A DNA stretch of 64,000 bases, from positions 13,585 to 77,584 of the forward strand of contig JAILZY010000006.1 of NCBI GenBank assembly GCA_023512255.1. Direction: 5' to 3'. The notes under the pieces were generated by a model, which saw nothing but the letters and a program-made list of their open reading frames with translations, was not told the origin of the DNA and did not search any database. The translations under genes were made by a program, and so were the position numbers. Of the stretch, positions 9,345 through 35,613 are shown piece by piece; within the stretch, counting starts at the first letter, position 1, and each line of letters opens with the position of its first letter. This DNA comes from a bacterium (lineage in GTDB: Bacteria > SZUA-182 > DTGQ01).

Positions 9345-9365
9345 TTTAGAATCTGGAATAAGGAG

Positions 9366-9860: not shown

Positions 9861-9874
9861 AGAGGCTAATCTTT

Positions 9875-14443: not shown

Positions 14444-17400
14444 TTATGGCGTATACTTTCCACAGTTATAATCCTCAAGCTCCTTGAGCCACTTTTTGAT
14501 CTGGGTCTTCTGGCCCTTGGTCAATCTTGGGTACCATTGCCGAGAGCTATAGACAGCCAGAAAAGAATCGATCTCGCTGAGTAGCTCTTCGAGACTAGCC
14601 GAGTCGTTTATTTGAACGCTAGCCTCTGCGCCGCTTGCCAGATTTAATTTGCAGGCAAGCACCTGAGCATAGAGATTAGCCAGGTTGCTCATCCTGCTAA
14701 TCTGCTTCGGGGCAAGAATATCATAGACTTGATCGCAGGTGCTGATCTTGATACTCTGCTGGCCGCCTGGAGTCCCAAGCCAGATAGGCAGCAGGGATTT
14801 GAGATAGTCGGAGTCAGCATAAGCATCATCTTTCCATGAGGATAGGCTCCGTGGCCGAGGAGAGGGAGCGGCGGTTGCGGTTTGCGGTGCGCTGCTGGCC
14901 GCGGCTGTCAGGGTAATGGGCAGCGGCGTAGTTATGGCTGAGCAGCGATCCCAAGGAAGTTGATCCCACTGGCCGACACTGCCAGCGCAGCTTATCTCCT
15001 CTCCATTGGTTAGCCGCACAGCTTCAACCTTGGCGCTCAGACCTTCATTGGTGGTAACCTTGGCGCTGCCAGTATTGGTATCTTGACCATTGTAGAAGAT
15101 CGTCTGCGGTGCGCTGGTCGGCTCAAGCTTTTCTGCGGGGTTAAACTCTGTCCCAACCTTGATCAACAGGGTTCGACTCTCCAGAGCTGGGATGCTGCCC
15201 ACCGTCCAGGTCAGCTTTTCCTTCTCAAATCCGCCGGGGCTTGGCGGAGGGGCAATGATTACATGGGTGGGGTCGCTGGTTTCAAAGGGATAGGCTTCAT
15301 TGTTGAAGGTGTCGGTAACCACTACGCCAGTTAGGGGAGTATCATTGCAGTTTTCCACTGTGATCTCAACCAAAAAGTAGAACACCGGGCTACCTTGAGC
15401 TATCTCCTCTTTGACCGCGACCGGAATGATCCGGTCAGTGAGAAACAGGTTGTCCGAGGTGCGATAGGGGCCATTGATGGTCTTGGTCAGCTTCAGGCAG
15501 GGCTTTGCTGGCGACACTCCGAAGTAGCAGCTTGGATCTTTGGCTGTGAGCTCATTGCCAAGCGGATCAAGAGCAGTAGCAGTGCCAGTATTCTTATACT
15601 GTCCGGCCTGGGCTGTGCCAGTGGCCGTGCAGGTCATGGATTCACCTTGATCTAGGGTAGTTTTTGGACAGGTGATGAGACCTAGCTTATCATCAGATAC
15701 AGTAATGCCGGTAAGTTTAGTATTGCCGGTATTTTTAACTTCATAGGTCCAAGTAATCTGATTACCCACCGGAATTTCAGGACATGGAGTGGTATTGGCA
15801 TCCTGCCCATTGGTGAGTTTCTTGAGGCTGAGGCCGCTGGCTACGCCAAAGTAGCAGCTTGGATCTTCAGCCGTGAGCTCATTGCCGGATGGATCAAGAG
15901 CAGTAGCTGTGCCGTTATTCTTATACTGTCCGGCCTGGGCTATGCCTGTGGCCGTGCAGATCATGGACTCACCCACCCCTAGGCTGTCATTCGGGCAGTC
16001 GATTTCGCCTAGCTTATCATCGACTACCTTAATGTCGGAGAGGGTAGTATTGCCAGTATTTTTAACTTCATAGGTCCAGGTAACCTGATCGCCAACTTGG
16101 ATCAGTGGACCAGGGGAAGTATTGGCATCCTGCCCATTGGTGAGTTTCTTGAAGCTGAGGCCGCTGGCTACACCGAAATAATAGCTGGTGTCGGTGAAGA
16201 TAAGCTTTTCCCCTCCTGGGCCTGTGGCTGTAGCGGTGCCGGTATTTTTATACTGTCCGGCCTGGGCTGTGCCTTCAGCTTCGCAGGTCATAGATTCGTT
16301 CGGCTCCAGGGTGGTTTTTGGGCAGGTAACCGTAGACCCCTCACTGTCCGTCACGGTTACATTCGATATGGTGACATTGCTGGTATTGGTAACCTCATAT
16401 TTCCAGTAAACCGGATTGCCAACCGGAATCGAGGGGCCGGGTGGTGAATCAACATGCTGGTCATTGGTAAACTTCTTGATAGTAATTCCACAGGTGCAGC
16501 CAAAGTAATGGCTGGGATCTGAGTCCATAAACTCTCTCCCAAGCGTATCCAAGGCCTTGACGATCCCTACATTTTTATACTGGCCAGCTGTGGCTGTACC
16601 AGTGGCTTCGCAGGTCATGTACTCACCCACCGCTAGGCTATTCTTCGGACAGGCGATGGGACCTAGTTTATCATCATATACAGTAATGCCAGAGAGCGGG
16701 GTATTACCAGTATTGGTAACTTTATAGCTCCAGGTAACCAGACCACCAACTGGTATTGAGGGGCCGGGCGGTGAGTTAGCATCCTCACCATTGGTGCTCT
16801 TCTTGATGCTGACCCCGGCACTGACTCCAAAGTAATGGCTAGGGTCAGTGTCGATAAGCTGATTGCCGGTTGAGTCTTTGGCGGTAACCGTAGCCAGGTT
16901 GGCATACTGGCCGAGCGCGGCTGTACCAGAGGCTTCGCAGGTCATGGACTGACCAGGACCTAGAGTATTCTTCGGGCAGGTGATTAGGCCTAGCTTATCA
17001 TCAGATACGGTAATGCCAGTGAGAGTATCATCACCAGTGTTAGTAACTACGTAGCGCCAAGTAACCAGCCCACCAACGGGTATTGAGGGGCCGGGTGGTG
17101 AGTCAGCATCCTGGCCATTGGTGCTTTTCTTGATGTTGATCCCACTGGTGTAGCCGAAATAGTGACTAGGATCTTCGGCCGTGAGCTGATTTCCGAGAAT
17201 ATCTGTGGCCGTAGCTGTAGCTATATTTTTATACTGGCCAGCCCGGGCTATACCGCTGGCTGTACAGGTCATGGACTGACCAGGATCTAGCATAGTAGCA
17301 GGGCAGGTGATGGCGCCTATCTGATTGTCGACTACTTTGATATTACTGATCGGGATATTGCCAGTATTAGTTATCCGATAGGTCCAAAAAACCTGACTAC

Positions 17401-20314
17401 CAGTGGGTATTCTGGGGCCGGGCGGTGAGTCGGCATCCTGGCCATTGGTGCTCTTCTCGATGCTGATCCCACTGGTGTAGCCAAAATAGTGGCTAGGATC
17501 ATTGAAGGTGAGCTGCTGTCCATCAGGAGCTGTGGCCGTGACTGTGCCGGAATTTGTGTACTGTCCAGCCTGAGCAGTGCCGCTGGCTGTGCAGGTCATG
17601 GACTGGCCAGCCTCCAGGGTATCCTGTGGGCAGCTAACAATAACTCCTTGATTATCAACTACTTTTACGTTTGATAAAAGAACATTGCTGAGGTTGCTAA
17701 CCTCGTATGTCCAGAGAACCTTAGAGCCAGGCAAAACAAAAGGGCCAGGAGGAGTATCGGCATCCTGACCGTTGGTGAATTTCTTAATTTTGATGCCGCA
17801 AGTGCAGCCAAAGTAATGGCTTGGGTCTTCAGCCATAAGCTGATTTCCCAAAGGATCCTTAGCCACAACTTTGCCGATGTTGCTATGCTGACCTGGTTGA
17901 GAGATCCCCTGGGCTGTGCAGGTCATGGACTGGCCCGCATCCAGGGTATCCTCGGGGCAGATGACCGCAACTGCCTGATCATCCGATACCCTGATTTCAG
18001 AGATAGGCACATCGCTGATGTTAGTAACCTCATAGCTCCAGTAAACAGGATCGCCGACACTTATGGAGGGGCCGGGAGGAGTATCGGCATCCTGACCGTT
18101 GGTGAATTTCTTAATTTTGATGCCACAGGTGCAGCCAAAGTAATAGCTGGAAGAGCTGGCTGTAATCTGTTTGCCATCTGGATCGGTGGCGATGACACTA
18201 CCAATGTTTTCGTGTTGGCCTACTTTGGCCAATCCGCTGGCAGCACAGGTCATGGACTGGCCTGCCTCCAGGGTATCCTTGGGGCAGATGACCGAAACTC
18301 CCTGATCATCCGTGACCTTGATATTACTTAAGATAACATTGCCGGTATTGGTTACCTTGTAGGTCCAGGTGATCGGATCGCCGACCGTCAGCTTGATGCC
18401 TGGTGGCTTGTCGGCAATTTGATCGTTGATAAATTTGGTCATGATAAGATTGCTGGCCGAACCAAAGTAATGACTAACATCGCTGGCCATGACTGTATTG
18501 CCAGCAGGATCGAAGGAGATAACAGTGCAGATATTCGTGTACTGACCAGGTTTGGCCTTACCGCTAGCTGTGCAGGTCATGATCTCACCTGGGGCTAGAT
18601 TATCCTTCGGGCAGCTAACAGTCACATCCTGATCATCAATTACGCTCACCTGGCTGAGAGGGACCTCGCCAGTATTGGTAACGATATATTTCCAGGTAAC
18701 TTCACTGTCTACAGGGATGAATGGGCCTGGTTTTTCTTTGGCCTCCTGGTCGTTGGTCAATTTCTGAATGGTTATGCTTCCACCAGCTACGCCAAAGTAG
18801 TTAGCCGGATCAGAATCATAGAGAATCTTTTTAACTTTCTTCAGGCACTTGGCGGTAACTTTGGCCGTATTTGTCTGCTGTCCGCTCTTGGCTGTAACAG
18901 GACCAATTATGCACTCAAATGATGCCCCACCTTTCAGAACTTCCGGCCCCTGGCAGGTTTCTGTGGAATATTGGGAATCGGTCAGCGACACTGAGTAAAG
19001 CTTAAAAAGGTTAGGATTGGTAACCACAATTTTAAAGTAGAGTTTACTTCCCTCCGCCACCCTGGGACCTGGCGGCGTATCAGCATCAATAAAGGTTTTT
19101 CCTTCATCTGTGGAGATATACTTTTTGACCGTGATCAGCGGCTGGCAGGGTTTGCAGCACAGGCAGCAGAGCATAAAGAGGCGGCCATCAAGGTATTGGA
19201 TTCCCTGCGGCCTGCTCCAGGTTAGATAATCGCAGATCACCCGCTCATCGCTGAGGCCATCATCCCTGCCAAGGACGATAGGCTCGCTTAGATCAATCCC
19301 TGATTCCAGCGGACAGACTGCTCGAAGCAGCTCCCCTGTGGTAAAGTCAACTATGGCAATTTCATCCTCAGAGTCAGAATAGGCCGTATCTCGACTGAGA
19401 TAGAGAACCTGCCTCATCTCCCCTTCCCAGGGGATGCAGGCATATGAGATGCCCGAATAGGTAGAGGGATAAAGTGACAGGGCAGAGCTTGCCTTATCAA
19501 TAGTTATCAGCCGACATGGTGAGTCTTGAAAATTACCCGCCTCATCGAGAGGGATTTTCCACACGGTGTTGTAGAGAAGATTGCTGGTGATAGCCAGCAG
19601 GAAGTTCTCTCCACTAGCAGGATCAGAGACATAGTCTAGGCCGCCGACAGGCTCGGGCAGAATCACAAATTTACCGCTCAATCCCTGTCGAACCATCCGA
19701 CCTTCTGAAAAATAAAACCTATCCTCTTTCTGCGCTAGGCCACTGATCCGGGTTTTTAGATTCAGGTGCCTGCTCAGTTTCCCGGTCTCAAGGTCAAGTT
19801 GAAAGATAGCATTATTGATTGAAAGATTGCCGCTATTGTTGAGAAGATAGATGAGGGGCTTATCAGATGTTCCCGTACCGCTTATCTCCCAGGTGTTAGC
19901 CCCACACTGCCAGGCACCACTTGGCTCAAGCAGCCAAAAATTTTGCGGACCCTTGAGCTGAAGGGTTAAGGGATCAAGCTCAACCAGAGCCTGGCCGATG
20001 ACCTCATGCTGAAGATCAGCAGCCCTTAACCATCGACCACTGTCCCTGAATGCAGTTGATTGGCTTGGGGGATTCGAGCCTCTGATTGATCTAGTGGAAG
20101 GGTTGACTGAGGTTGGGGGAGAATACATCAACTGTGGCTCTAGGTTAGTAGCTGTGGGCTCTAGGTTAATAGCTGTGGGACTTAGATTTTTCAGTTTCGA
20201 GGGAGGTGTTGATTCGGCAGCCAAAAAAGCTACCCTACCTGGAGAGGAGTTTAGGCCAATTAAAATGAGTGTAAGCATCATGACGAGCAATCTTTGACTT
20301 TGTCTCATGTTCAT
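14444..20314 (-). CDS. 1956-aa secreted surface protein with 11 tandem ~110-aa Ig-like repeats (DUF11/DUF7507-like)
   Basis: Sec-type N-terminus. Repeat consensus KKxTNGQDAxxPPGP...VTWxYxVTNTG...CPxxxL..GESMTC...xYFG occurs 11 times (nt ~15518-19135), followed by one divergent unit and a helical C-terminal domain. Confidence 0.85.
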   Translation of the reverse strand: MNMRQSQRLLVMMLTLILIGLNSSPGRVAFLAAESTPPSKLKNLSPTAINLEPTATNLEPQLMYSPPTSVNPSTRSIRGSNPPSQSTAFRDSGRWLRAADLQHEVIGQALVELDPLTLQLKGPQNFWLLEPSGAWQCGANTWEISGTGTSDKPLIYLLNNSGNLSINNAIFQLDLETGKLSRHLNLKTRISGLAQKEDRFYFSEGRMVRQGLSGKFVILPEPVGGLDYVSDPASGENFLLAITSNLLYNTVWKIPLDEAGNFQDSPCRLITIDKASSALSLYPSTYSGISYACIPWEGEMRQVLYLSRDTAYSDSEDEIAIVDFTTGELLRAVCPLESGIDLSEPIVLGRDDGLSDERVICDYLTWSRPQGIQYLDGRLFMLCCLCCKPCQPLITVKKYISTDEGKTFIDADTPPGPRVAEGSKLYFKIVVTNPNLFKLYSVSLTDSQYSTETCQGPEVLKGGASFECIIGPVTAKSGQQTNTAKVTAKCLKKVKKILYDSDPANYFGVAGGSITIQKLTNDQEAKEKPGPFIPVDSEVTWKYIVTNTGEVPLSQVSVIDDQDVTVSCPKDNLAPGEIMTCTASGKAKPGQYTNICTVISFDPAGNTVMASDVSHYFGSASNLIMTKFINDQIADKPPGIKLTVGDPITWTYKVTNTGNVILSNIKVTDDQGVSVICPKDTLEAGQSMTCAASGLAKVGQHENIGSVIATDPDGKQITASSSSYYFGCTCGIKIKKFTNGQDADTPPGPSISVGDPVYWSYEVTNISDVPISEIRVSDDQAVAVICPEDTLDAGQSMTCTAQGISQPGQHSNIGKVVAKDPLGNQLMAEDPSHYFGCTCGIKIKKFTNGQDADTPPGPFVLPGSKVLWTYEVSNLSNVLLSNVKVVDNQGVIVSCPQDTLEAGQSMTCTASGTAQAGQYTNSGTVTATAPDGQQLTFNDPSHYFGYTSGISIEKSTNGQDADSPPGPRIPTGSQVFWTYRITNTGNIPISNIKVVDNQIGAITCPATMLDPGQSMTCTASGIARAGQYKNIATATATDILGNQLTAEDPSHYFGYTSGINIKKSTNGQDADSPPGPSIPVGGLVTWRYVVTNTGDDTLTGITVSDDKLGLITCPKNTLGPGQSMTCEASGTAALGQYANLATVTAKDSTGNQLIDTDPSHYFGVSAGVSIKKSTNGEDANSPPGPSIPVGGLVTWSYKVTNTGNTPLSGITVYDDKLGPIACPKNSLAVGEYMTCEATGTATAGQYKNVGIVKALDTLGREFMDSDPSHYFGCTCGITIKKFTNDQHVDSPPGPSIPVGNPVYWKYEVTNTSNVTISNVTVTDSEGSTVTCPKTTLEPNESMTCEAEGTAQAGQYKNTGTATATGPGGEKLIFTDTSYYFGVASGLSFKKLTNGQDANTSPGPLIQVGDQVTWTYEVKNTGNTTLSDIKVVDDKLGEIDCPNDSLGVGESMICTATGIAQAGQYKNNGTATALDPSGNELTAEDPSCYFGVASGLSLKKLTNGQDANTTPCPEIPVGNQITWTYEVKNTGNTKLTGITVSDDKLGLITCPKTTLDQGESMTCTATGTAQAGQYKNTGTATALDPLGNELTAKDPSCYFGVSPAKPCLKLTKTINGPYRTSDNLFLTDRIIPVAVKEEIAQGSPVFYFLVEITVENCNDTPLTGVVVTDTFNNEAYPFETSDPTHVIIAPPPSPGGFEKEKLTWTVGSIPALESRTLLIKVGTEFNPAEKLEPTSAPQTIFYNGQDTNTGSAKVTTNEGLSAKVEAVRLTNGEEISCAGSVGQWDQLPWDRCSAITTPLPITLTAAASSAPQTATAAPSPRPRSLSSWKDDAYADSDYLKSLLPIWLGTPGGQQSIKISTCDQVYDILAPKQISRMSNLANLYAQVLACKLNLASGAEASVQINDSASLEELLSEIDSFLAVYSSRQWYPRLTKGQKTQIKKWLKELEDYNCGKYTP

Positions 20315-20769: not shown

Positions 20770-22866
20770 ATGCGGAAAAATCGGATGAGCAGAAAAAAAT
20801 CCAGCCCAACCCTAACTAATTCTCGGCCCCAAAAAGGCCTATCGCTTTGCCTCATCTTGCTCTTCTCTTGCCTTACCTTCCTTTTCTTTCCCCTGCACCA
20901 TGTCGCCGCACCCTTATCCTCATTTCTGATTCAATCTGAAGCAGCAAATTCCTCCCCTGCTCCATCGCCATCGCCCTCGTCCTCGTCCTCCTCATCGGCA
21001 TCTTCCTCATCGGCATCATCTTCATCGAAGACCTCGCAGATCTTTGAGCAGGCCGTCAGTGCCTGGCAGAGCAGCCACCTTAAGGCAGCTCAGAAAGGCT
21101 TTGAGGAATTGATTTTCCGCTACCCTGATGCTCCCCAGGTTGCGGACAGCCTCTTCTATCTTGGAGAAATTTACGAAAAGCAAAATCTCCTCTACGAGGC
21201 TCAGGCCTTATATCGTCAATTCGCTGAACGCTATCCCAATCATCAGTCAACTCCTGAGGCTTTGATCAGGCAGGGTGAAATCTCCTATCGCCTCGGAGAG
21301 GTGAAGAAGGCGCAAAAGATTTTCAAACAAATCCTCTTCCACTATCCTAATAGCAGTCTGGCTCCCAAAGTTGCCTTTCGCCTGGGAGACTGCCTCTATG
21401 AATCAGGGGATACAGCCTCCGCTAGGCTCTATTACGATGAGGGAATGAAGCGGCTTCCATCCTATCTGGATGAGCATCCGCAGACGGCTTTCAATATTGG
21501 CAGCCTCTACCTCCAGGATAAGCGGCTCGATCAGGCGCTCTCGGTTTTTCTAGCGCTCGGGAAAAATCACCCGAAATTCGAGGCCGCTGACAAGGTACTC
21601 ACCTTTTGTGGCGATATCTACGCCGAGCAGGGAAAGATTGCCGAAGCTGTCCTTGCCTACCAACGGGTAATCGAGAGCTATCCTGACTCTATCGGAGCCC
21701 AAGTCAGCCAGATCAGAATGGCTGACCTAGGAGTAGAATATCCACAGCTGAAAAATTCCTCTGCTCCTCCTGCCTTCCGTGACCCGATTGCGGCCTATCG
21801 GCAGATGATCCAAAGAAAGAACACCGATCCTGTGCTGGCTCAACTGGCCGAATATAAACTTGCTCTAGCTTTACAAAAAAAGGAAGAGCATAAGGAGGCT
21901 ATAGGTGTCTTGCGATCCCTATTGGCTAAAGCTCCTAAGGAGAGCATTCAGCAAGGTGGCCTTTTTGCTCTCAAGCAGGAGCTGGTCAATTACATCAACC
22001 AGTGTTTTCAGAGAAAGGATTATTTGGGAGTGATCAAATTGTACGAGGAGAATAAAAATCTGGTGGATTCCTTTCTGCAGCAACAAAAAACTCCCCTACC
22101 CTATTTCAGGATCGCTCAAAGTTACCAGAACCTCAGATTCTATCCTCCGGCAATTCAATTGTATCGGCAGGCTAAGACAATGATCGACGGCCAGGAAAAG
22201 GCTACAGACTCTCTCTCCCCTCAGATCAATTTCCAGCTAGGCTGGATTTTCTTTCAGACCGAAGAGTATCAGAAGGCTATCGACTCCCTAAAGCAGGCTG
22301 TCAGCCAAGAGGCCGCATCTTCCAATTCCACCCCCCCAAGGGTATCCTTTTTCGCCCTCTCCTTAATGGGAGATATCTGCCGAGAGAGGAAAGACTACCC
22401 AACAGCCATCAGCTACTATCAGGCCAGCCTGAAGCTCAGACCACCCCGCCAGGGGGTGGAACAGCTCCTGAAAATGGGGCAATGCTATCGGAGGCTGGGC
22501 AAGATCAGCGAAGCTATCGAATCCTTTTCAGAAGCTGTCAATCTTGCCCAGGGGGAAAAAGAACAACAGGTGCTGGCCCAAGGATATCTCTATTTGGCAG
22601 ACTGCCAATACCAGGCCGAGAGGTATTCCGAAGCCCTCGTAAACTACCGCAAGGCACAGGGCCTTTCCCTGCCCCCACAGGACCGCGACTGGGTGCTCTA
22701 TCAGATTGGTAATTGCCTGCTGAAAGAGGCAAAACCAAAAGCCGCTGGCGAAACCTTTGCTAAGATCAAGGCAGCTACTCAGGACCCTATCTGGCCGATT
22801 ATTGTTGATTTTAAGGAATCTGAGATTAATTGGGAATCATCTGACACAAGGAGAAAACCGCTATGA
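20770..22866 (+). CDS. Exported/membrane-anchored tetratricopeptide-repeat protein at the head of the flagellar cluster
   Basis: N-terminal hydrophobic segment, Ser-rich linker and many TPR-like units (ADSLFYLGEIY, ALIRQGEISY, YLYLADCQY). ATGA overlap with fliE. Confidence 0.82.
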   Translation: MRKNRMSRKKSSPTLTNSRPQKGLSLCLILLFSCLTFLFFPLHHVAAPLSSFLIQSEAANSSPAPSPSPSSSSSSSASSSSASSSSKTSQIFEQAVSAWQSSHLKAAQKGFEELIFRYPDAPQVADSLFYLGEIYEKQNLLYEAQALYRQFAERYPNHQSTPEALIRQGEISYRLGEVKKAQKIFKQILFHYPNSSLAPKVAFRLGDCLYESGDTASARLYYDEGMKRLPSYLDEHPQTAFNIGSLYLQDKRLDQALSVFLALGKNHPKFEAADKVLTFCGDIYAEQGKIAEAVLAYQRVIESYPDSIGAQVSQIRMADLGVEYPQLKNSSAPPAFRDPIAAYRQMIQRKNTDPVLAQLAEYKLALALQKKEEHKEAIGVLRSLLAKAPKESIQQGGLFALKQELVNYINQCFQRKDYLGVIKLYEENKNLVDSFLQQQKTPLPYFRIAQSYQNLRFYPPAIQLYRQAKTMIDGQEKATDSLSPQINFQLGWIFFQTEEYQKAIDSLKQAVSQEAASSNSTPPRVSFFALSLMGDICRERKDYPTAISYYQASLKLRPPRQGVEQLLKMGQCYRRLGKISEAIESFSEAVNLAQGEKEQQVLAQGYLYLADCQYQAERYSEALVNYRKAQGLSLPPQDRDWVLYQIGNCLLKEAKPKAAGETFAKIKAATQDPIWPIIVDFKESEINWESSDTRRKPL

Positions 22867-23411: not shown

Positions 23412-25052
23412 ATGCCAGCTTTTCTTGAGGCCATAAGAAAATTCGCTGACTCATTCCGCAGCCTTCCGCTGAACCGGAAGATTGCGCTCTCTCTAGTATT
23501 GGTTATCCTGGTCGGCGGAGTGGTGGCTCTGATGAGCTGGGCCAACAGAGCCAACTATCAGCCCCTTTACTCACGCCTTGATCCAGAGGATGCCGGAGCT
23601 ATTCTTACCAGGCTCAAGGAGAGCAAAATTCCCTACCGGTTGAAAAATGGAGGCACTACGATCCTGGTTCCAGAGGATAAGGTGTATGAGCTTCGACTAC
23701 AGATGGCCACTGATCGGGTGTTTCAGAAAGGGATTGTTGGCTTTGAGCTATTTGACCAGACAAACCTTGGAACCACTGAATTTGTTCAGACCGTAAATTA
23801 CCATCGGGCTCTGGAGGGTGAGCTTAGCCGCACCATCGGCAGTTTGGCTGAGGTCGAATGGGCTAGGGTTCATCTGGCCATTCCTCAAAAAAGTCTGTTT
23901 ATCGAGAAAGAGCAGCCACCGACCGCCTCAGTGGTTATTCGCTTACGTGAGGGGAGCAGCCTACGCAAGGCCCAGATCAACGGTATTGTCCATCTGGTCT
24001 CCTGTAGCGTGGAAGGGCTCATTCCGGAGAATGTCAAGGTTATTGACCATCAGGGAAGGATTCTGAGCGAAAATCCCAATGATTTTTCCAGCCAGCTTAT
24101 CCAAGCCAACAAGGTAGAATATCAGATGCAGGTGGAAGAGATTTTGGAGAAGAAGGTTACGGCCATGCTGGAGAAGGCCTTAGGCGAGGGCAAGGTAATT
24201 GCCAAGGTTTCGGTCAGCCTAAATCTGAAGCAGGTTGAGACGACCGAAGAAAAGTACGATCCCGACCGAACAGTAGTCAAGACCGAACAACGAACCCAGG
24301 AGGCAGCCCAGGGACAGACGCCAGTTACTCCAGCTGCCGGCAATAATTCCAATTATCAGAAATCGGATGAAATCATCAAATATGAACTGACCAAGGCAAC
24401 CAATCACATTATTGAATTGCCTGGGCAAATCAACCGCCTGTCGGTTGCGGTGTTGGTGGATGGAAGATATGAGAAGCAGGATAAGGGAGTAAAATATATC
24501 CCCAGGACACCTGAAGAGATAAAGAGTATTAGGACCATTGCCGAAAAGGCTGTCGGCTATGATCCGAGCCGTGGAGATCAGATTGAAGTGGTCAATATCC
24601 CCTTTTCCCTCGATTCAGCTCAAGGACACGGCCAGGCATCGCTTGACATTTTAAAAAATTGGCCGCTCTGGCTTAGCCTGGCTAAATATGGAAGCAAACT
24701 GCTGCTGATCTTGATTATCCTGCTCTTTATCTTCCGGCCATTGGTAAAATGGCTCTACCACTTCACCCCCCAACCTCTCCCTGAAAACATAACTCCTCCC
24801 CTGCCGCCGGAAGATGAGGCCCGAAAGATTGAAGAGGCGCTGACCGATGAGCAGGCCATGATCAGCGAGCTTCAGCAAAAACTGCCCAGTCGGCTTAGCC
24901 AGGTAGAGCAGGCCTTTCAAATGGCGAATAATGAAGAAAGCCGAGCGCTTGAAGATATGGTCAAGGTAATTCGGGAAATCGCCAAACAGGAGCCAAAGCG
25001 AATTTCTCAGTTGACCCACGAATGGTTACTTGAGGAGAGAAAGCAGTCATGA
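23412..25052 (+). CDS. fliF: Flagellar MS-ring protein FliF
   Basis: GFELFDQ, NYHRALEGELSRTI, ARVHLAIP, two TM segments. Confidence 0.97.
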   Translation: MPAFLEAIRKFADSFRSLPLNRKIALSLVLVILVGGVVALMSWANRANYQPLYSRLDPEDAGAILTRLKESKIPYRLKNGGTTILVPEDKVYELRLQMATDRVFQKGIVGFELFDQTNLGTTEFVQTVNYHRALEGELSRTIGSLAEVEWARVHLAIPQKSLFIEKEQPPTASVVIRLREGSSLRKAQINGIVHLVSCSVEGLIPENVKVIDHQGRILSENPNDFSSQLIQANKVEYQMQVEEILEKKVTAMLEKALGEGKVIAKVSVSLNLKQVETTEEKYDPDRTVVKTEQRTQEAAQGQTPVTPAAGNNSNYQKSDEIIKYELTKATNHIIELPGQINRLSVAVLVDGRYEKQDKGVKYIPRTPEEIKSIRTIAEKAVGYDPSRGDQIEVVNIPFSLDSAQGHGQASLDILKNWPLWLSLAKYGSKLLLILIILLFIFRPLVKWLYHFTPQPLPENITPPLPPEDEARKIEEALTDEQAMISELQQKLPSRLSQVEQAFQMANNEESRALEDMVKVIREIAKQEPKRISQLTHEWLLEERKQS

Positions 25053-26056
25053 GTAGGCAACTGACCAATTCGGAAAAAGCAGCTATTCTTTTTTTGGCTC
25101 TTGGAGAGGAAATCACTGCCGAGGTCTTTCGGGGGCTAGAAGAGTCAGAAATCCAGCTCATCACCCAGTACATTACCAATATGGAAACTCCCACCCTAGA
25201 TGATATCAAGGCTGTGCTTCAGGAAACCATGGAGCGAATTTCCTATCGGCACGTTTTGCCGCAGGAGGTAGCCGAGTATATCAATAATGTTCTCATCAAG
25301 GCCCTGGGGGAGAAAAAAGCGGCGGAAATCCTGCGTAAGCTCCAAGCACCGATGATTGGCAAGTCAGCTAATCTTAAGGTGGTCAAGGATCTTGATTCAG
25401 AGACCCTGGTCAATCTAATTCGAGGAGAGCATCCCCAGATCATGGCTTTGGTTCTGGCTCACTTGAATCCGGACAAGGCGGCCGAGGTACTTGCTTTTTT
25501 GCCTGAAGATATCAGGACTGATGTGGCCCTTCGGATCTGCAATCTGGAGCGGATCAGACCGGGAGTAATGCAAGAGATAAGCGAATTTTTTCGGAATAAG
25601 CTTATTAGCATGCAGGATTCGGAAAGCCAGACCGTAGGTGGGGTCAGCAAGCTTGCCGAGATCATGAACCATATTGATCGGACTTCAGAAGACAGCATTA
25701 TGTCGAATATTGAGAAAATAGATCCATCTTTGTCTGAAAATATTCGTATGCTTATGTTTACTTTTGAGGATCTGGCTGGGATCAGTAATCAGGAGATGCA
25801 GACCCTGCTTAAGGAAATTCCCAAGGATGAGCTGGTTTTGGCTCTCAAGACTGCCAGTGTCGAGTTGAAGGATCTGATCCTGCGGAATATGTCCGAGCGG
25901 GCAGCGCAGATGACCATTGAAGATATGGAATCTATGGGTGCGGTAAAGCTTCACGATGTGGAAAAGGCACAGCAGAATATTGTCAAAATCGCCAGACGTC
26001 TTGAAGAGGAAGGCAAGCTCGTTCTCAAGGGCGGCAAGGGCGATATCATGGTTTAA
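25049..26056 (+). CDS. fliG: Flagellar motor switch protein FliG
   Basis: EKAAIL, EHPQIMALVL, GGVSKLAEIMN, MFTFEDL, NMSERAA. Confidence 0.97.
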   Translation: MSRQLTNSEKAAILFLALGEEITAEVFRGLEESEIQLITQYITNMETPTLDDIKAVLQETMERISYRHVLPQEVAEYINNVLIKALGEKKAAEILRKLQAPMIGKSANLKVVKDLDSETLVNLIRGEHPQIMALVLAHLNPDKAAEVLAFLPEDIRTDVALRICNLERIRPGVMQEISEFFRNKLISMQDSESQTVGGVSKLAEIMNHIDRTSEDSIMSNIEKIDPSLSENIRMLMFTFEDLAGISNQEMQTLLKEIPKDELVLALKTASVELKDLILRNMSERAAQMTIEDMESMGAVKLHDVEKAQQNIVKIARRLEEEGKLVLKGGKGDIMV

Positions 26057-28477: not shown

Positions 28478-28948
28478 GTGAAAACATTTCGCTTACAGTC
28501 TGTTCTCGAATATCGAAAGAGTCTTGAAGAGGAAATTCAGCGGGAATTTTCCGAGCTTCAGGCCAAGCTTTACCAAGAGAGAGAGCTTGGCCTGCGGATC
28601 AAAGAGCAGATTTGCGCTTGGCAGCAGAAATTCCATGATCGACAAAAACAGCCGCAAGGTATTTGCTCCGCTGAGATTGACCTCTACCATAAGTTTTTGC
28701 ATTTTTTGACCAATGAGGCCGCAAGGCAGGAAGAGAAAATCCGCTCCCTTGAGTTGGCTGTTGAGCAAAAGCGGCAGGTCCTGCTTGAGGCCAGAAGGGA
28801 AAAGAAGATTATGGAGAGGTTGAGAGAAAAAACCCTTATCCTCTGGAGGAAAGACATGCTGCGGAAAGAGCAAAAGCTCTTGGATGAGAGAGCTGCAAAC
28901 CGCCGCCGTAGGGGCAGCCAGGATATGGCACCAGGATATGGCAGATGA
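28478..28948 (+). CDS. fliJ: Flagellar export chaperone FliJ
   Basis: FRLQSVLEYRKSLEE N-terminus, coiled coil, EQKLLDE C-terminal motif; follows fliI. Confidence 0.9.
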   Translation: MKTFRLQSVLEYRKSLEEEIQREFSELQAKLYQERELGLRIKEQICAWQQKFHDRQKQPQGICSAEIDLYHKFLHFLTNEAARQEEKIRSLELAVEQKRQVLLEARREKKIMERLREKTLILWRKDMLRKEQKLLDERAANRRRRGSQDMAPGYGR

Positions 28949-29676
28949 AGAAGGATAGAGGCTTGAGCAAGGGATTGGGACTTCTGCCTGCACCGCAGCC
29001 TTCATTGAACAGGGAAGCAAAGATGATTAGAGCCACAGCCCGCAGTCTTCCTCGAACTCTTCTTGGATCAGCCATAGTGGCTGTGGCTGTTTACGCTGCT
29101 TTTCTCAAGGGCTTTTCGATCAGCCGCCCGCGCTTGGTCCGTGAAAGCCTGGCTGGCCAGTCAAAGGCATCCTCGGCTTCCGCGACCGCGGGTGGAAGCC
29201 CTACTTGGGAAAGCCTGGCTCAGGTTCAACAATCCCTGGCTGAGCGGGAAGCCAAGCTCAGGGAGAGGGAAAAGACACTCGATGAGCAAGAGCAGCGGCT
29301 TTCTGCTATCAAGCAGGAGATTATTCAGAGTCTTGAGCTTATGAAAGCGCTTCAGAGGGAAATTGAGGAAAAAGGCCGAAAGCTGGATGAGCAGCAGGAG
29401 AAGCGAATCAAAGAGCTGTCCAAGATCTTCGAAAGCGCTCCTCCGGAGAAGGCCGGCTCAATCATCGCTCAGACCGATCTTTTGACCGCAGCGGAAATCA
29501 TCATGCGGATTGATAAGAGAAAAGCAGGCCGGATCTGGGGATATGTAGACCCAAAATTAGCCGCGAAGATTACCCAACATATAGCCCAGCAAGATGCCTG
29601 GAAAAGAGGACTACCCTCCTCTTCTTCCCTGACTGATGAAGCTTCCGGTCAGGGTGAGGCAGAAAATAAGGAATAA
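28945..29676 (+). CDS. MotE/FlbB/YlxF-like protein (TM + coiled coil + MgtE_N-like domain)
   Basis: Single TM segment, long coiled coil, then LSKIFESAPPEKAG...RKAGRIW; conserved position after fliJ. Confidence 0.75.
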   Translation: MKKDRGLSKGLGLLPAPQPSLNREAKMIRATARSLPRTLLGSAIVAVAVYAAFLKGFSISRPRLVRESLAGQSKASSASATAGGSPTWESLAQVQQSLAEREAKLREREKTLDEQEQRLSAIKQEIIQSLELMKALQREIEEKGRKLDEQQEKRIKELSKIFESAPPEKAGSIIAQTDLLTAAEIIMRIDKRKAGRIWGYVDPKLAAKITQHIAQQDAWKRGLPSSSSLTDEASGQGEAENKE

Positions 29677-29825: not shown

Positions 29826-30590
29826 ATGGATATTGCTACCGTATCTGGAATTGCGTCTGCCTTCGCCCTGGTGGTGATTGCCATATTCATGGGCGGAAGT
29901 CTGATGATTTTTGTCGATATTCCCTCGGTCATGATTACGGTCGGGGGAACGATCGGAGTTAGCCTCATTCACTATCCCCTGGGGGATATTCTGGGAGTGA
30001 TGAAGGTAGTGAAAAATACCTTCTTTTCAAAAACGCACAATCCTCAGGAGTTGATTAAGAAAATTATCGAAATGGCCAGCCTGGCCCGCAAAGAAGGGCT
30101 TCTGGCTTTACAAAATACAGCTAAAAGCCTAGAGGACCCCTTCATACGGGTAGGAATTCAGGGGCTGGTTGACGGCCTGGAGCCTGAAGCCATCAGACAG
30201 ATCCTGAATACTGATATCGAGCAGATGGAAGATCGCCACTCCCACGGAGCCGAGATCCTGACCAGTATGGCTGCCTATGCCCCAGCTATGGGGCTCATCG
30301 GCACCCTCATCGGACTGGTGCAGATGCTGCAAAACCTGAATGACCCCAGCAAGATCGGCCCTGGTATGGCTGTCGCTCTCCTCACCACCTTTTACGGAGC
30401 CATTATGGCCAACATGGTTTTCCTCCCTTTGAGCGGGAAATTGAAAACTCGAAGCTCCGAAGAGGCCCAATATCGGCAGATTGCCCTGGAAGGCATCATT
30501 TCTATCTCAACCGGCACCAATCCTCGCATTATTGAGCAAAAGCTCCACGCTTTTTTGCCGCCTAAGATGCGAATTTCAAGCTTCAATTAA
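29826..30590 (+). CDS. motA: Flagellar stator A subunit (MotA/PomA type)
   Basis: MDIAT...ARKEGLLAL, APAMGLIGTLIGLVQML, ALLTTFYG. Confidence 0.95.
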   Translation: MDIATVSGIASAFALVVIAIFMGGSLMIFVDIPSVMITVGGTIGVSLIHYPLGDILGVMKVVKNTFFSKTHNPQELIKKIIEMASLARKEGLLALQNTAKSLEDPFIRVGIQGLVDGLEPEAIRQILNTDIEQMEDRHSHGAEILTSMAAYAPAMGLIGTLIGLVQMLQNLNDPSKIGPGMAVALLTTFYGAIMANMVFLPLSGKLKTRSSEEAQYRQIALEGIISISTGTNPRIIEQKLHAFLPPKMRISSFN

Positions 30591-30821
30591 TTTCATACCC
30601 GCATTCATGCACCAATATAATGCGCATCCTGAGACAAGAGGTCTTCATGGCTTGGAGAATGGTTATTGAATATTGATAACTATTTGATTTAATGATTTAT
30701 TTTTTAGCTTTATTTTTCGTGTCTGTCGGCATTAATCTTGCTGGAATATAAATAATGAAAAGCTGCTAACCTCATATATTTCACTCTTAACCATTAGAGT
30801 GGGAAAATCTGATCATTATTT

Positions 30822-31661
30822 ATGAAAATCAACGCAAAAATTCATCCTATCTATAAGATTTTGCTTGGAGAGTTTTGGCTGTCTGAAGAGGGAGACTCAA
30901 CAGTCGTGCTCATGTGTGCCTTGGTTCTCCTGATGATGGCTTTTTTTGCAGTCTTAAATTCCATTTCGGTGAAGGATAAAAAAAGGGAGCGGGCGGCGCT
31001 GGGCTCAGTTACAGAAAGTTTTGGCGCTCTGCCGGGTGGGGTTCTGCCGAATGCAGGCAAACAGTTCCTGCTTGCCTCCCCGCCAATGGTTGATTCGCAG
31101 CATGAGCTGGCCAGCAAGGGAATCAGCCCTGAGACCCTTTATGAGCTGGTGCGGTTAAATTCAGATAAGAAGTGGTATCAGATTATAACCCTTAAAAAAT
31201 CGCTTGAGGGATTAAGTATTGCCCTTTCGGATCAGGGTTTTTTCACTCCCGGCAGAGCGGAATTAGCCGCGGAGAAACTGCCCATGCTAAATAAAATCAG
31301 TGCGCTTATTCAGGACTCATCCTGTGATGTGGTCATTAAAGGGTATACGGATAATACCCCTATTGCCTCAAGTAATTTTGGGTCAAACTGGGAGCTGTCT
31401 GCGGCGAGAGCCATGAATGTTATGAAATATTTCATCCAGCAGGGGATCTCCCCCTCCCGGCTGGAAGCAGCAGGCTATGGGGAGTATGATCCTCTCTTCC
31501 CCAATGATACCGAGGAGCATCGGGCCCTAAATCGAAGAGTGGAGATTCAATTGGTTCAAAAGGAAAAAAAAGAGCTTCCCTCAAGGGATGACTCAAATGA
31601 TAAGGATGGAATCATGGTTCATGGCTTTTGGTTTAAAATGCGAAGCCTCATGCAAAAATAA
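30822..31661 (+). CDS. motB: MotB-like protein 1: OmpA-type PG-binding domain intact, TM Asp absent
   Basis: GYTDNTP, SNWELSAARA, GYGEYDP, NRRVEI. TM segment VVLMCALVLLMMAFFAVL contains no Asp. Confidence 0.85.
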   Translation: MKINAKIHPIYKILLGEFWLSEEGDSTVVLMCALVLLMMAFFAVLNSISVKDKKRERAALGSVTESFGALPGGVLPNAGKQFLLASPPMVDSQHELASKGISPETLYELVRLNSDKKWYQIITLKKSLEGLSIALSDQGFFTPGRAELAAEKLPMLNKISALIQDSSCDVVIKGYTDNTPIASSNFGSNWELSAARAMNVMKYFIQQGISPSRLEAAGYGEYDPLFPNDTEEHRALNRRVEIQLVQKEKKELPSRDDSNDKDGIMVHGFWFKMRSLMQK

Positions 31662-31686
31662 AATCCAAAGATAAAATCAGGGTAAT

Positions 31687-32394
31687 ATGGCCAAGAAAAA
31701 AGAAAAGAAAGAAATGGATCCGCAAGCCTGGATGTTCAGCTTTTCAGATCTATTGACCAATATGCTGACCTTCTTTGTGCTGCTCTATTCCATGTCATCT
31801 ATGAACAACCTGGCCTTTGAACACTACCTTGCCCCTTCGCTTCGGGGCGCCTTGGGAGTGATTAACCGTGGGGAGCTGACCAGTATTGGAAAGCCCCGCT
31901 TTATGCCGGTTTCTCTACCGCCGACTGAGGAATTCTCTCTCATTGAGGATGCGTTCATCAAGGCCCTGTTGAGCGATGCCAAAGAGCAAGATGAGGCCGG
32001 GCCGGATTCTAAAAATTTGCAGACCATAGATATCTATGCCAATCAAAAATTTGCCCAGGTATTATTTCCAGCCAAGGTCCTGTTTGAAAAAAACAGTGCC
32101 GAGATTTCTCCTCAGATGGCCAAGCACCTTCGGGGAATTGCTGTGATTTTAAACAAATTCGCCCACCCTGTGCGGATCAATGGCTATAGCTACTCAGCAG
32201 GGGGGCAAGAGAGTGAGGTCTTGTCGCTTAAGAGGGCCTCGGCAGTGTTAAATTTTCTCATTACTGAGGGAGGGCTTGCCCCGGAGAGGTGCAGTTTGGC
32301 TGGTTATGGAGAGCTGCGGCCTGAGGGAAGAAGAGTAAAGAGTGAGGATTATGTAGAGATTTACATTATTAAAGCGATCAATTACACCACATAA
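31687..32394 (+). CDS. motB: MotB-like protein 2: canonical TM with Asp, degenerate PG-binding domain
   Basis: WMFSFSDLLTNMLTFFVLL. OmpA-like domain has GYSYS in place of GHTD and EDYVEI in place of NRRVEI. Confidence 0.88.
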   Translation: MAKKKEKKEMDPQAWMFSFSDLLTNMLTFFVLLYSMSSMNNLAFEHYLAPSLRGALGVINRGELTSIGKPRFMPVSLPPTEEFSLIEDAFIKALLSDAKEQDEAGPDSKNLQTIDIYANQKFAQVLFPAKVLFEKNSAEISPQMAKHLRGIAVILNKFAHPVRINGYSYSAGGQESEVLSLKRASAVLNFLITEGGLAPERCSLAGYGELRPEGRRVKSEDYVEIYIIKAINYTT

Positions 32395-32660: not shown

Positions 32661-33161
32661 ATGGGTATTCGAAATGAACAAGGCTTTTTATCAACCAAGC
32701 TACTGATCATTATCAGCGCGGTGGTGCTCCTTTTAATCGGAGCAGGCATTTTCATCTACCTGAAATTTCTCTCGTCTCCCAAAAATGCTGCGGCTCAACC
32801 TCGCTCTGCCCCACCCCAGGAGGAGAGCTTGCCTCAGCAGCCTGCCGCGGCTGATATCCAAGGCCCTATTTTTGATTTAAATACCTTCATTGTCAACCTT
32901 ATGGGAGATTCGGGGAGGAGATATCTGAAGGTTACCATTAAGCTTGAGTTGAGCAGCGAGCTGCTGAAAGAGGAAATTAGTAAAAAAATGCCGGAGATTC
33001 AAGACAATATGCTGGTTTTGCTATCCAGCAAATCGTACGATGATATCGCCGATGTCTCAGGCAAGATACGGCTTCGGGCTGAAATCATGAATCGGATCAA
33101 TGCGGTATTGACCTCTGGTCAGGTTCGCAAGGTCTACTTTACCGAGTTTGTCATTCAGTAA
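32661..33161 (+). CDS. fliL: Flagellar basal body-associated protein FliL
   Basis: N-terminal TM, FIVNL, RRYLKV, VYFTEFVIQ. Confidence 0.95.
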   Translation: MGIRNEQGFLSTKLLIIISAVVLLLIGAGIFIYLKFLSSPKNAAAQPRSAPPQEESLPQQPAAADIQGPIFDLNTFIVNLMGDSGRRYLKVTIKLELSSELLKEEISKKMPEIQDNMLVLLSSKSYDDIADVSGKIRLRAEIMNRINAVLTSGQVRKVYFTEFVIQ

Positions 33162-34239: not shown

Positions 34240-34660
34240 ATCTACCTCTATGAACGAAAAGGGCGATCAAGCAGCTATGTCTCAAGAGGGCTTCACTCCC
34301 TCATCTTTCCCGGAACCATCGCCGGAGCAGGAGCAATTCATCCCTCGTGGCTCCTTTCCCCAGGCAGGAGAGGTGCTATCGCAGGATCAGCACTCCTTTC
34401 CCCGCAACCTAGATTTTATCCTCGACATCCCCCTGGAAATCTCGGTTGAGCTAGGGAGGACCAAGGTCCGCATCGCCGATATCCTAAAACTTGGACAAGG
34501 ATCGATAATCGAGCTTACCAATCCAGCCGGAAGCGCCCTTGAGGTCTTGGTTAACCACAAACCTATTGCCAAGGGCGAAGTAGTCGTAGTCAACGAAAAA
34601 TATGGCATTAGACTTACCGAAATTCTCAGTGTCATGGAAAGGATTGAAAAACTCAGATGA
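34214..34660 (+). CDS. fliN: Flagellar motor switch protein FliN
   Basis: LDFILDIPLEISVELGRT, GEVVVVNEKYGIRLT. Start at 34214 follows an AAGGAG RBS. Confidence 0.95.
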   Translation: MSGKTSPVESTSMNEKGDQAAMSQEGFTPSSFPEPSPEQEQFIPRGSFPQAGEVLSQDQHSFPRNLDFILDIPLEISVELGRTKVRIADILKLGQGSIIELTNPAGSALEVLVNHKPIAKGEVVVVNEKYGIRLTEILSVMERIEKLR

Positions 34661-35613
34661 AGCCACTCTCTGCTTTCATTATCGACAGGAAAATGAAAAA
34701 TCTTGGGCTAACCTTGCGGGAAAAAAGAGGGATGCTTATGCTCTTTCTTCTTCTTGCGCTCTGTCTGTTAGTAAGCCTGATGCTGGTGGAGGCTGAATCA
34801 TCCTCATCTACTCTGGGGCTAGATTCTACCCGGCGTCGAATGCTCAGCAGAGAAGGGAAAAAAGGCCCTCAGGCTCAGCCTGGGCAAAAAGCAAGCCAAG
34901 AGTTTGAGCATCTGCATTTGAGCCAAGAGCCTGGGCAAACAAATCAGTCTGGGCAGGCAAGCCAACCTGAGCAAGCCAGCCAGCAGTCTGAGCAAGCAAG
35001 CCAGCAGCCTGGACAAGTAACCCAGCCTGAGCAAGCAAGCCAACCTGAGCAAGCCAGCCAGCAGCCCCCCGCGGCCGCTGATGAGGAGAGCACCACCTTG
35101 TCAGATGATTTTGATCTCCTGAAGGAGAGACTCAGCGAGAGGCTTCAGCCCAAGCAGCCCCCTTCTTCGTCTGCTATTGTCAATCTTGCCCCTCCCCTGC
35201 TGAAGGCCACCCTCTCCTTGGCCTTGGTTTTAGCGGTCATCTTCGGTTTGAGTTACCTGGTGAAAAAATATTATCTTAAGGGAAATCTGCCGGGCGGGAA
35301 ATACATACAGCTTCTCGATACCTGTCCCTTGGGACTTAAAAATTCCCTCATTCTGGTGAGGGTAGAAACCCAGACCCTGCTGCTTGGGCTGAGTGGTCAG
35401 CAGATCGTTCTCCTGACCCAGGTTAACTCTGCGGCGGGGAAATCAAAGTCTTCCGAGGAAGCTGCCAAAGGCAGACCGAAGGCTTCTGAAAGCTTTGCTG
35501 AGCAACTATCAATGAATACAATGAAATTGCAGCCGTCTTTACAGGTTTCGGAAAGTGCCACCAATATCGCCGATATCCTGGAGAGCCGACTAAAAGGGCT
35601 GAAAAAGGTATGA
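34657..35613 (+). CDS. fliO: Flagellar biogenesis protein FliO with long Gln-rich N-terminal extension
   Basis: Located between fliN and fliP. TM (LSLALVLAVIFGLSYLVKK) is followed by IQLLDTCPLGLKNSLILVRV...LLLG. Confidence 0.8.
   Translation: MKPLSAFIIDRKMKNLGLTLREKRGMLMLFLLLALCLLVSLMLVEAESSSSTLGLDSTRRRMLSREGKKGPQAQPGQKASQEFEHLHLSQEPGQTNQSGQASQPEQASQQSEQASQQPGQVTQPEQASQPEQASQQPPAAADEESTTLSDDFDLLKERLSERLQPKQPPSSSAIVNLAPPLLKATLSLALVLAVIFGLSYLVKKYYLKGNLPGGKYIQLLDTCPLGLKNSLILVRVETQTLLLGLSGQQIVLLTQVNSAAGKSKSSEEAAKGRPKASESFAEQLSMNTMKLQPSLQVSESATNIADILESRLKGLKKV
34955..35068. repeat. Coding tandem repeat (QPEQASQ-type units) within fliO
   Basis: Repeated (c)agcctgagcaagc(a/c)agc units. Confidence 0.85.

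Follow-up and report, generated by a model that had tools for sequence, protein, structure and literature searches.

Two tandem MotB paralogues, one without the ion-binding aspartate, behind a single motA gene: a candidate heteromeric flagellar stator

A stretch of 64,000 nucleotides from a bacterium of the GTDB lineage SZUA-182; DTGQ01 (assembly GCA_023512255.1, contig JAILZY010000006.1, positions 13,585 to 77,584; hereafter the window, to which all coordinates refer) contains a flagellar gene cluster in which a single stator gene, motA, is followed by two unlike motB genes. Of their products, B2 (from motB-2) carries the ion-binding Asp and has a degenerate peptidoglycan-binding domain, and B1 (from motB-1) lacks this Asp and has a canonical domain. 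With moderate confidence, we interpret motA, motB-1 and motB-2 as encoding one heteromeric stator unit, MotA5:B1:B2. The original prediction, made from the letters of the window alone, had proposed such a division of labour, with one MotB chain conducting and the other anchoring. The features on which the argument turns are the following.

29826..30590, + strand: motA, the sole stator A subunit gene of the window, PomA/MotP-like, 254 amino acids (Pfam MotA_ExbB 2.2e-34; NCBIfam PomA 298 bits)
30822..31661, + strand: motB-1 (B1), 279 amino acids, MotB paralogue that lacks both ion-binding Asp and essential Trp and has a canonical OmpA-like domain
30891..31022, + strand: transmembrane helix (~residues 24-48) and plug-like helix (~53-67) of B1, from the alignment to 6YSF, with helices taken from a low-confidence AlphaFold2 (AF2) model
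30918-30920, + strand: codon of B1 Ala33, in the Asp column
31239..31535, + strand: OmpA-like domain of B1 with GYTD, SNWELSAARA and NRRVEI (Pfam OmpA; motifs invariant in orthologues)
31617..31658, + strand: C-terminal aromatic tail of B1, ...VHGFWFKMRSLMQK (GFxFK invariant in the clade)
31687..32394, + strand: motB-2 (B2), 235 amino acids, with canonical MotB transmembrane helix and plug and a degenerate OmpA-like domain
31747..31749, + strand: codon of B2 Asp21, the only ion-binding Asp of the pair (invariant in 18 orthologues and in 83/83 scored downstream copies)
32080..32367, + strand: degenerate OmpA-like domain of B2 (GYSYS at 32182-32196; LSLKRA; EDYVEI at 32344-32361)
32661..33161, + strand: fliL, stator-associated, 3' of the MotB pair (Pfam FliL 1.7e-27)

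A profile of 17 MotB-1 orthologues was aligned to the solved C. sporogenes MotB chain (6YSF/8UCS). The two were in register and gap-free ('kGDstvvlmcAlslllvaFF' in the profile against RGDEWLATFSDTITLLLTFF), and no gap appeared through the helix in the longer alignment ('kGDstvvlmcAlslllvaFFavlnslsvkD' against RGDEWLATFSDTITLLLTFFILLYSFSSVD). Ala33 of B1, eight residues N-terminal of the FF pair (residues 41-42), falls on the ion-binding Asp column, and Thr27 on the Trp column (position -6); B1 lacks both residues expected of a MotB/PomB B subunit. The alternative site that had been considered, Asp25, matches the Asp of 'RGDEW' in C. sporogenes MotB and D11 ('DPQAW') of B2. Because canonical MotBs carry that juxtamembrane Asp besides the ion-binding one, Asp25 is, as judged from this alignment, an ordinary juxtamembrane residue and not a displaced or compensating ion site, and the idea that it stands in for the missing Asp had to be given up. 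An 8-residue insertion between Asp25 and FF, which would make D25 the true ion site, was ruled out by the absence of gaps and by the match of D25 to the RGDEW Asp.

In B1 the full set of peptidoglycan-binding motifs is present (GYTD 174-177; LSAARA 192-197, within SNWELSAARA; NRRVEI 237-242), and its Pfam matches are limited to OmpA (69.9 bits, 2.4e-19, residues 140-238) and part of MotB_plug, the latter covering only residues 34-67 (profile positions 25-58) at 21.7 bits, under the 24-bit cut-off. The best NCBIfam matches are the MotD, MotB and MotS families. The plug pattern D..K...ALGS..G.FG is conserved across the Asp-less B1 family. In the aromatic tail G268, F269, F271 and K272 are invariant in the orthologues of the window's clade, and similar tails occur in distant B1 proteins (loci L164, L165, L243, L230 and L206 of the survey described below). 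The AF2 monomer models of B1 and B2, built on shallow alignments, were poor (predicted local distance difference test score, pLDDT, 57.6 and 61.3) and uninformative on the B1 tail and the linker.

B2 has both the Asp and the Trp of a MotB/PomB B subunit, W15 and D21 lying within WMFSFSDLLTNMLTFF (the stretch WMFSFSD21LLTNMLTFF is present); it aligns to the B chains of 6YSF, 6YSL and 8BRI and matches MotB_plug in full (52.3 bits against the cut-off of 24 bits). In its OmpA-like domain GYSYS (166-170) replaces GHTD and EDYVEI (220-225) replaces NRRVEI. The Pfam OmpA match (43.2 bits) ends at profile position 84/98, short of the NRRVE end; the beta-alpha-beta topology of the fold is kept in the AF2 model, with pLDDT 75-90 over residues 130-210. 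In OmpA-like domains diaminopimelate is bound by two residues, the GHTD Asp and the LSxxR Arg (PMC5974059). B2 has lost one of these two and the NRR motif as well, and retains the Arg (LSLKRA, R183); because of the latter, its anchor seems degenerate rather than demonstrably dead. The residue assignments of the original prediction, Ala33 and the three motifs in B1 as well as D21, GYSYS and EDYVEI in B2, were all confirmed by the residue check, the former also by the gap-free 6YSF alignment and the latter by the orthologues. The anchor defect ascribed to B2 stands for the GHTD Asp and NRR and does not extend to the LSxxR Arg.

Orthologues from metagenomes and metagenome-assembled genomes (MAGs), 17 for MotB-1 and 18 for MotB-2, reached down to ~53% identity, and many were on shared contigs. 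The Asp column is occupied by Ala or Gly in all MotB-1 orthologues, in which D25 and the OmpA motifs are invariant. All MotB-2 orthologues have W15 and D21, none has the GHTD Asp, and (E/G/S/A)(D/S)YVE is found instead of NRRVE. The order motA-motB1-motB2-fliL was identical in every clade contig long enough to show all four genes, and a 98%-identical locus was present in at least three independent metagenomes. Pairwise ratios of nonsynonymous to synonymous substitution rates (dN/dS), which are rough with dS near saturation, were 0.15-0.22 for motB-1, 0.08-0.15 for motB-2 and 0.04-0.08 for motA. Both motB genes are clearly under purifying selection, and the relaxed selection on MotB-1 that would have spoken against the proposed stator was not seen at these values. 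Conservation in the orthologues, the independent metagenomes and dN/dS rule out a sequencing error or a pseudogene; that the divergence of MotB-1 is no sequencing error had been argued from the window alone, and the argument held.

To place the pair, one genome per GTDB species and metagenome contigs were scanned, which gave 96 non-redundant tandem motB-like loci. The pattern SNWELSAxR, derived from the full-length MotB-1 alignment, was too common and returned only generic MotBs; the loci were found with the MotB-2 alignment and with the N-terminal motif of the Asp-less copies, L171-L250 being retrieved via LL[AS]FFI[LV]LN. motA is directly upstream in 89/96 loci and fliL directly downstream in 80/96. 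In 87/96 the Asp is missing from the upstream copy and present in the downstream one; both copies have the Asp in 6/96 (Aquificota, Desulfonauticus submarinus), and the order is reversed in 3/96. The residue in the Asp column of the 87 upstream copies is Ser in ~46, Ala in ~25, Thr in ~9, Glu in 2 and Gly in 1. Two loci in which the Asp-less copy (Ser or Gly) follows the Asp-bearing one, L238 from a Verrucomicrobia MAG and L244 from a Lentisphaeria MAG, have degenerate OmpA motifs in both copies. In L052, L166 and L167 (Zetaproteobacteria and related) the upstream copy has Glu at the ion-binding column (ALFLELMMQMLAFF), which preserves a carboxylate, and has lost the Trp; such Glu-bearing MotBs may represent an intermediate state.

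The Asp-less copies share the signature KKK..(D/G)SF(T/V)V(L/M)(F/M)T(S/A)LS.ILLAFFILLNS.A..D..K.R.ALGSL.GSFGILPGG and often end in an aromatic tail (GFxFK, FxFKxFxF). Their N-terminal motif alone gave at least 147 confirmed stretches, and in a profile search of 1.84 billion cluster representatives 42 of the 131 best matches shorter than 400 amino acids were Asp-less yet had GHTD, the Arg and NRR. Asp-less copies occur, among others, in many Desulfobacterales and Desulfarculales (the cultured Desulfocarbo indianensis, L243, is one of these), in Desulfatibacillum and Desulfosudis oleivorans, in Myxococcota MAGs, and in Nitrospirota, Nitrospinota, Sumerlaeota, Tectomicrobia, Acidobacteriota and Zetaproteobacteria. 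Well over a hundred species of bacteria have the motA-motB-motB arrangement. Where the contig continued, no Asp-less copy was seen without a following Asp-bearing copy. The stop of B1 and the start of the B2 frame overlap or are at most 15 nt apart in 60/81 pairs (25 nt in the window), a spacing that suggests co-expression. Annotation pipelines name the Asp-less copy 'OmpA family protein' or 'MotB'. In a published survey the B subunit was taken to be whichever gene follows motA (PMC12505986), and surveys of this kind would pick the Asp-less copy in these lineages.

In a neighbour-joining tree of the periplasmic domains, whose deep nodes are weakly supported, copies from the same genome never grouped together. 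The best match of the window's B1 domain was the upstream copy in 11/12 lineages, and that of its B2 domain the downstream copy in 10/12. By these comparisons the B1/B2 paralogues are old, and a single ancient duplication is likely. The loci appear to form a series. Both copies are complete in Aquificota and Desulfonauticus; in most Desulfobacterales B1 has lost the Asp and B2 is complete; and in the window's clade and some Myxococcota-type lineages, which would represent the fully subfunctionalised end, the two copies are fully complementary. The complementary defects that had been predicted are real in the window's clade and are not a property of the family, since B2 is canonical in 54 of 83 scored pairs and both copies have the Asp in Aquificota. 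Similarly, the survey of motA-motB-motB loci proposed with the prediction recovered the Asp-less/Asp-bearing arrangement, and paired degeneration turned out to be one end of a continuum.

Three further observations were made among these loci. In L173, L178, L180, L193, L226, L240 and L242 (Myxococcota/'Deltaproteobacteria' MAGs) the OmpA-like domain of B2 has no peptidoglycan-binding residue left, with AMWPW for GHTD and RKIRFVL for NRRVEI; their B1 has Thr at the Asp column and canonical OmpA motifs, and these are the most extreme complementary pairs among the loci examined. In L169 (Desulfosoma caldarium) and L170 (Desulfacinum hydrothermale), the closest cultured relatives by MotA, motA is followed directly by fliL with no motB between them (5001-6300), so that the B subunit or subunits must be encoded elsewhere. 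L165 has a MamF/MmsF-family gene (2534-2992) ~750 nt upstream of the motA-B1-B2-fliL locus on the opposite strand, and its carrier may be a magnetotactic bacterium.

The transmembrane helix, the plug and the peptidoglycan-binding triad were scored in 83 Asp-less/Asp pairs. B2 has W(-6), T(-3), F(-2) and D(0) at 92-100%, W(-6) and D(0) being present in 100%. In B1, positions -10 to 0 are essentially unconstrained, and positions +1 to +13 (L, I, L, L, A, F, F, I, L, N) as well as the plug positions A+26, S+29 (100%) and F+34 are conserved to a degree equal to or above that in B2. According to Deme et al. (preprint), W26 of MotB is completely conserved and contacts the P173/Y217 ring of MotA, its replacement (W26A) abolishes motility, and the critical ion site is D32. 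Taking into account that B1 has neither of these two vital residues, it could not make a working stator alone, and the pattern of its decay suggests that what it has lost is precisely the portion of MotB coupled to ion flow. The part retained is the one that solved structures show packed against the partner B chain and the periplasmic loops of MotA.

The triad is canonical in both chains in 25/83 pairs, only in B1 in 27/83, only in B2 in 29/83 and in neither in 2/83. At least one full triad is kept in 81/83 pairs (Fisher p = 1.4e-5 for the association, uncorrected for phylogeny). One competent anchor per pair is the pattern that a shared assembly or a shared anchor would predict.

A gap separates motA from motB-1 in the window (30591-30821), and it measures ~130-240 nt across the window's clade. 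Elsewhere in the two-MotB lineages motA and B1 abut or overlap, the long spacer being confined to this clade. It contains two conserved elements.

30608..30623, + strand: island TGCACCAATATAATGC (also given as TGCACnAATATAATGC), just past the motA stop, near-invariant in 5 orthologous spacers that are otherwise poorly conserved
30727..30742, + strand: sigma-54-type -24/-12 promoter-like element CGGCATTAATCTTGCT (also given as GGCATTAATCTTGCT), 5' of motB-1

A sigma-70-like match overlaps the island, which could be a regulator site or a -10-like element. As for the second element, a match to the sigma-54 pattern in the single window is not above chance. It gains weight from its conservation across orthologous spacers: GGCATT.AT.TTGCT is invariant in 5/5 of the motA-motB1 spacers, and the exact TGGCAT-N5-TTGCT is found in L085 and L086. 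The window also encodes a sigma-54 activator (11381-12763). On these grounds motB1-motB2-fliL may be under their own sigma-54 promoter in the window's clade.

The observations that bear on the interpretation are the residue states of the two chains and their fixation, purifying selection, linkage behind one motA, selective decay of the B1 half-helix and the anchor-per-pair pattern; from these we infer that the two chains would share one pentamer and that a single Asp would suffice. In the proposed assembly, for which synteny and conservation provide the support, a MotA pentamer would enclose an axle of one B1 and one B2 chain. B2 would give the sole ion-binding Asp (D21) and the Trp touching the Pro/Tyr ring of MotA, and would couple ion flow to rotation. 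The ion is probably Na+ because MotA is PomA-like: in the PDB it is closest to C. sporogenes MotA and Vibrio PomA, and it keeps the ion-path-lining threonines of PomA, in GTLIGL and LLTTFYGA. B1 would be a permanently neutral axle partner whose competent OmpA domain holds the axle still; in the window's clade no other competent peptidoglycan anchor would be available. Like a chain of a normal MotB dimer, B1 would pack with its periplasmic half-helix and plug against B2 and the MotA loops. The single Asp could work via one powered and one passive 36-degree step, or via 72 degrees per ion. More tentatively, and with somewhat less confidence than for the pair in the window, we propose that an obligately asymmetric MotA5:B1:B2 stator of this kind, turning with a single Asp while the other chain serves as neutral partner and wall anchor, is widespread.

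Several points weigh against this interpretation. The mainstream rotation model needs two alternating Asp residues (Deme et al. preprint among the sources). B1 is not needed for anchoring in general, since in 54/83 pairs B2 is by itself a full canonical MotB and could function as a homodimer. Shared ancestry is not accounted for in the triad association test. In L171-L250 the conservation of B1 positions +5 to +13 is in part built in by the retrieval motif; the half-helix is also conserved in loci found via the OmpA motif or B2 and in the profile-search matches, and the plug positions lay outside the retrieval pattern. Zhou et al. are said to have found in 1998 that D32 mutants of E. coli MotB are non-functional and dominant-negative, in which case a one-Asp dimer may not turn. 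The motA and motB-1 genes of the window's clade are kept apart by the spacer with its conserved sigma-54-like element, so that A and B subunits are not strictly co-translated there. Finally, the argument for co-assembly of B1 and B2 with MotA is an indirect one.

Much of the same evidence would also fit a B1 that acts beside or around the stator, as a membrane-tethered, peptidoglycan-bound derivative of MotB, with conduction by A5:B2:B2. B1 would then hold B2 homodimers by contacts of one OmpA-like domain with another or by way of its aromatic tail at the C-terminus, a role akin to that of MotY and the T-ring for PomB or to TolA/TonB docking outside the pentamer. Such an arrangement would account for the loss of both MotA-contacting essentials (Trp and Asp) and the unconstrained cytoplasmic half-helix, for the family-specific tail, and for lineages, of which there are many, in which B2 is fully canonical. 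MotB OmpA-like domains do dimerise (PDB entries), a periplasmic B1-B2 contact would explain one anchor per pair equally well, and an flbB-like collar gene and a TPR gene in the cluster (see below) hint at extra periplasmic scaffolding. However, a plain anchor is not expected to keep the MotB-specific LLAFFxxLN half-helix and D..K...ALGS..G.FG plug across phyla; the plug half of MotB_plug is still matched by B1, below the Pfam cut-off, and no MotY_N-type or TolA/TonB-type features were found in it. We consider this explanation rather unlikely, although it is the strongest competitor of the heteromeric stator. The predicted division of labour is favoured by linkage, by loss of Asp and Trp from B1 only, by the kept half-helix and plug and by the triad pattern, with the qualification that an accessory anchor would agree with much of this.

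It is more doubtful that B1 forms non-conducting units (A5:B1:B1 or A5:B1:B2), regulators or placeholders that compete with A5:B2:B2 for rotor sites and serve as a brake, a load-dependent spacer or a MotA-titrating pool. B1 does keep the plug and the periplasmic half-helix for entry into the pentamer without having the Asp and the Trp, Asp-less MotB mutants of E. coli are, as mentioned, reportedly dominant-negative, the conserved sigma-54-like promoter of motB-1 in the window's clade would allow separate control, and a YcgR-like brake gene in the window points to elaborate motor regulation. Competing units fail to explain, however, why the B2 anchor decayed only where that of B1 is intact, and they leave the anchoring of B2 unaccounted for in the window's clade and in the Myxococcota-type loci; the fixed order and translational closeness of B1 and B2 suggest a fixed stoichiometry rather than regulated competition. 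Least probable, to a degree that we would hardly count on it, are two alternative homodimeric stators on one MotA, as is usually assumed for Aquifex, with B1 conducting via Asp25 or Cys32. Chimeras with the transmembrane region of either Aquifex MotB, together with Aquifex MotA, each support motility of E. coli (PMC4525482), Aquificota and Desulfonauticus keep the Asp in both copies, and D25 is invariant in the window's clade. But D25 aligns with the juxtamembrane Asp that canonical MotBs have in addition to the ion-binding one, the Asp column varies (S, A, T, G) next to an unconserved cytoplasmic flank, unlike what an ion site that had moved would show, B1 lacks the essential Trp too, and B2 homodimers of the clade would have no competent anchor.

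The heteromeric stator, if it exists, matters beyond this locus. The rotation model for 5:2 ion-driven motors (MotAB, PomAB, ExbBD, TolQR, ZorAB) rests on two identical axle chains with alternating Asp residues, and a natural stator with an axle chain lacking Asp and Trp would be a ready-made test of that model and would bear on the number of ions per revolution. If the interpretation is correct, rotation needs no two alternating Asp residues, and the ion-to-torque ratio would be changed in many Desulfobacterota, Myxococcota, Nitrospirota and related lineages. The pair would also be a clear case of subfunctionalisation inside a homodimer, one paralogue conducting and the other anchoring.

The stator genes are part of one plus-strand flagellar supercluster that spans positions 23-53 kb of the window. 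It comprises, in this order, fliF, fliG, fliH, fliI, fliJ, the flbB/MgtE_N-like gene, motA, motB-1, motB-2 and fliL and continues with fliM, fliN, fliO, fliP, fliQ, fliR, flhB, flhA, flhF, flhG and fliA, after which rod, hook and P-ring genes follow (gene calls, Pfam). No second MotA homologue was found in the 64-kb window, within which the earlier statement that only one motA is present was borne out; the nearest named homologues of this MotA are from Desulfobacterota (57-62% identity). A Rfam scan of the window gave no matches. Other genes referred to are listed here.

25049-26056, + strand: fliG
28945-29676, + strand: flbB/MgtE_N-like gene
8964-9344: CheY-like receiver
9366-9860: CheX
10436-11122: YcgR-like protein, PilZNR+PilZ
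11381-12763: sigma-54 activator with receiver, AAA+ and HTH_8 domains

The last four make up a regulatory block (8964-12763) 5' of the flagellar cluster. The flbB-like gene just 5' of motA matches weakly the spirochaete collar protein FlbB and MgtE_N. Directly preceding fliE/fliF is the gene of a 698-amino-acid TPR protein (20770-22866), whose counterpart in L081 adds a response-regulator domain. Both genes hint at extra periplasmic or cytoplasmic motor scaffolding. The open reading frame at the fliO position (34657-35613) is long (318 amino acids) and has a Gln/Pro/Ser-rich tandem stretch (QASQPEQASQQ...); its orthologues in L081 and L082 match Pfam FliO. Outside the cluster, 14444-20314 on the minus strand encodes a giant protein of 1956 amino acids with ~10 DUF7507 repeats and DUF11, DUF7617 and Ig-like domains, probably of surface or adhesin type, and 6535-8775 encodes 746 amino acids in which a dethiobiotin-synthase-like AAA_26 domain is joined to a class-III aminotransferase, an apparent BioD-BioA fusion.

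In full-text literature searches, which left much of the subscription literature uncovered, no report of an Asp-less MotB or of a MotB heterodimer was found, and on second MotBs only the Aquifex MotB1/B2 work and general reviews were retrieved. No earlier description was found of the two-MotB family with an Asp-less upstream copy, of which the window's pair is one extreme. The closest case is motA/motB1/motB2 of Aquifex aeolicus (Takekawa et al. 2015, PMC4525482), where, as in the window, one motA is accompanied by two tandem motB genes with strongly different periplasmic regions; the window and the Aquificota loci L054, L059, L136 and L146 all have this layout. The Aquificota upstream copy has canonical OmpA motifs, like B1, and the downstream copy, like B2, has no GHTD Asp (QGYSYP and KNARVEL in Aquifex, NGYSYS and EDYVEI in the window). 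In contrast, the transmembrane regions of the two Aquifex proteins are 97% identical and both contain the Asp (PMC4525482), whereas the B1 and B2 helices of the window differ, B1 having neither Asp nor Trp and a helix that is only half MotB-like. Each Aquifex MotB was tested as a stator of its own, and a heterodimer was not proposed (PMC4525482).

With the canonical MotA5MotB2/PomA5PomB2 complexes (6YSF, 6YSL, 6YKM, 8BRI) the window shares a PomA-like MotA, the W...D...TFF helix and plug of B2, OmpA-like C-termini and adjacency to fliL. The axle of those stators is a homodimer with two alternating Asp residues, whereas the window has two unlike B genes with Asp and Trp in one only. One MotA/TolQ-like gene with two different MotB/TolR-like genes, as in the window, is also found in Myxococcus AglR/AglQ/AglS and in the paired TPH-vWA/TolQ-like systems, and a heteromeric axle has been discussed as possible for both (PMC9389320 for AglR/AglQ/AglS, PMC12204202 for paired TPH-vWA proteins). 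Both partners keep the Asp in these systems, which are non-flagellar, whereas the window's B1 is Asp-less and flagellar. A precedent for divided anchoring is provided by MotY and the T-ring of Vibrio and Pseudomonas, where a separate OmpA-like peptidoglycan-binding protein aids the anchoring of PomB/MotD. MotY, a secreted protein of the periplasm, differs in its N-terminal domain and lacks a helix or plug of the MotB type. B1 does not have the features of a MotY-type accessory protein; unlike MotY, it is a full-length MotB homologue with an N-terminal transmembrane helix (AF2 model), and it is encoded between motA and motB.

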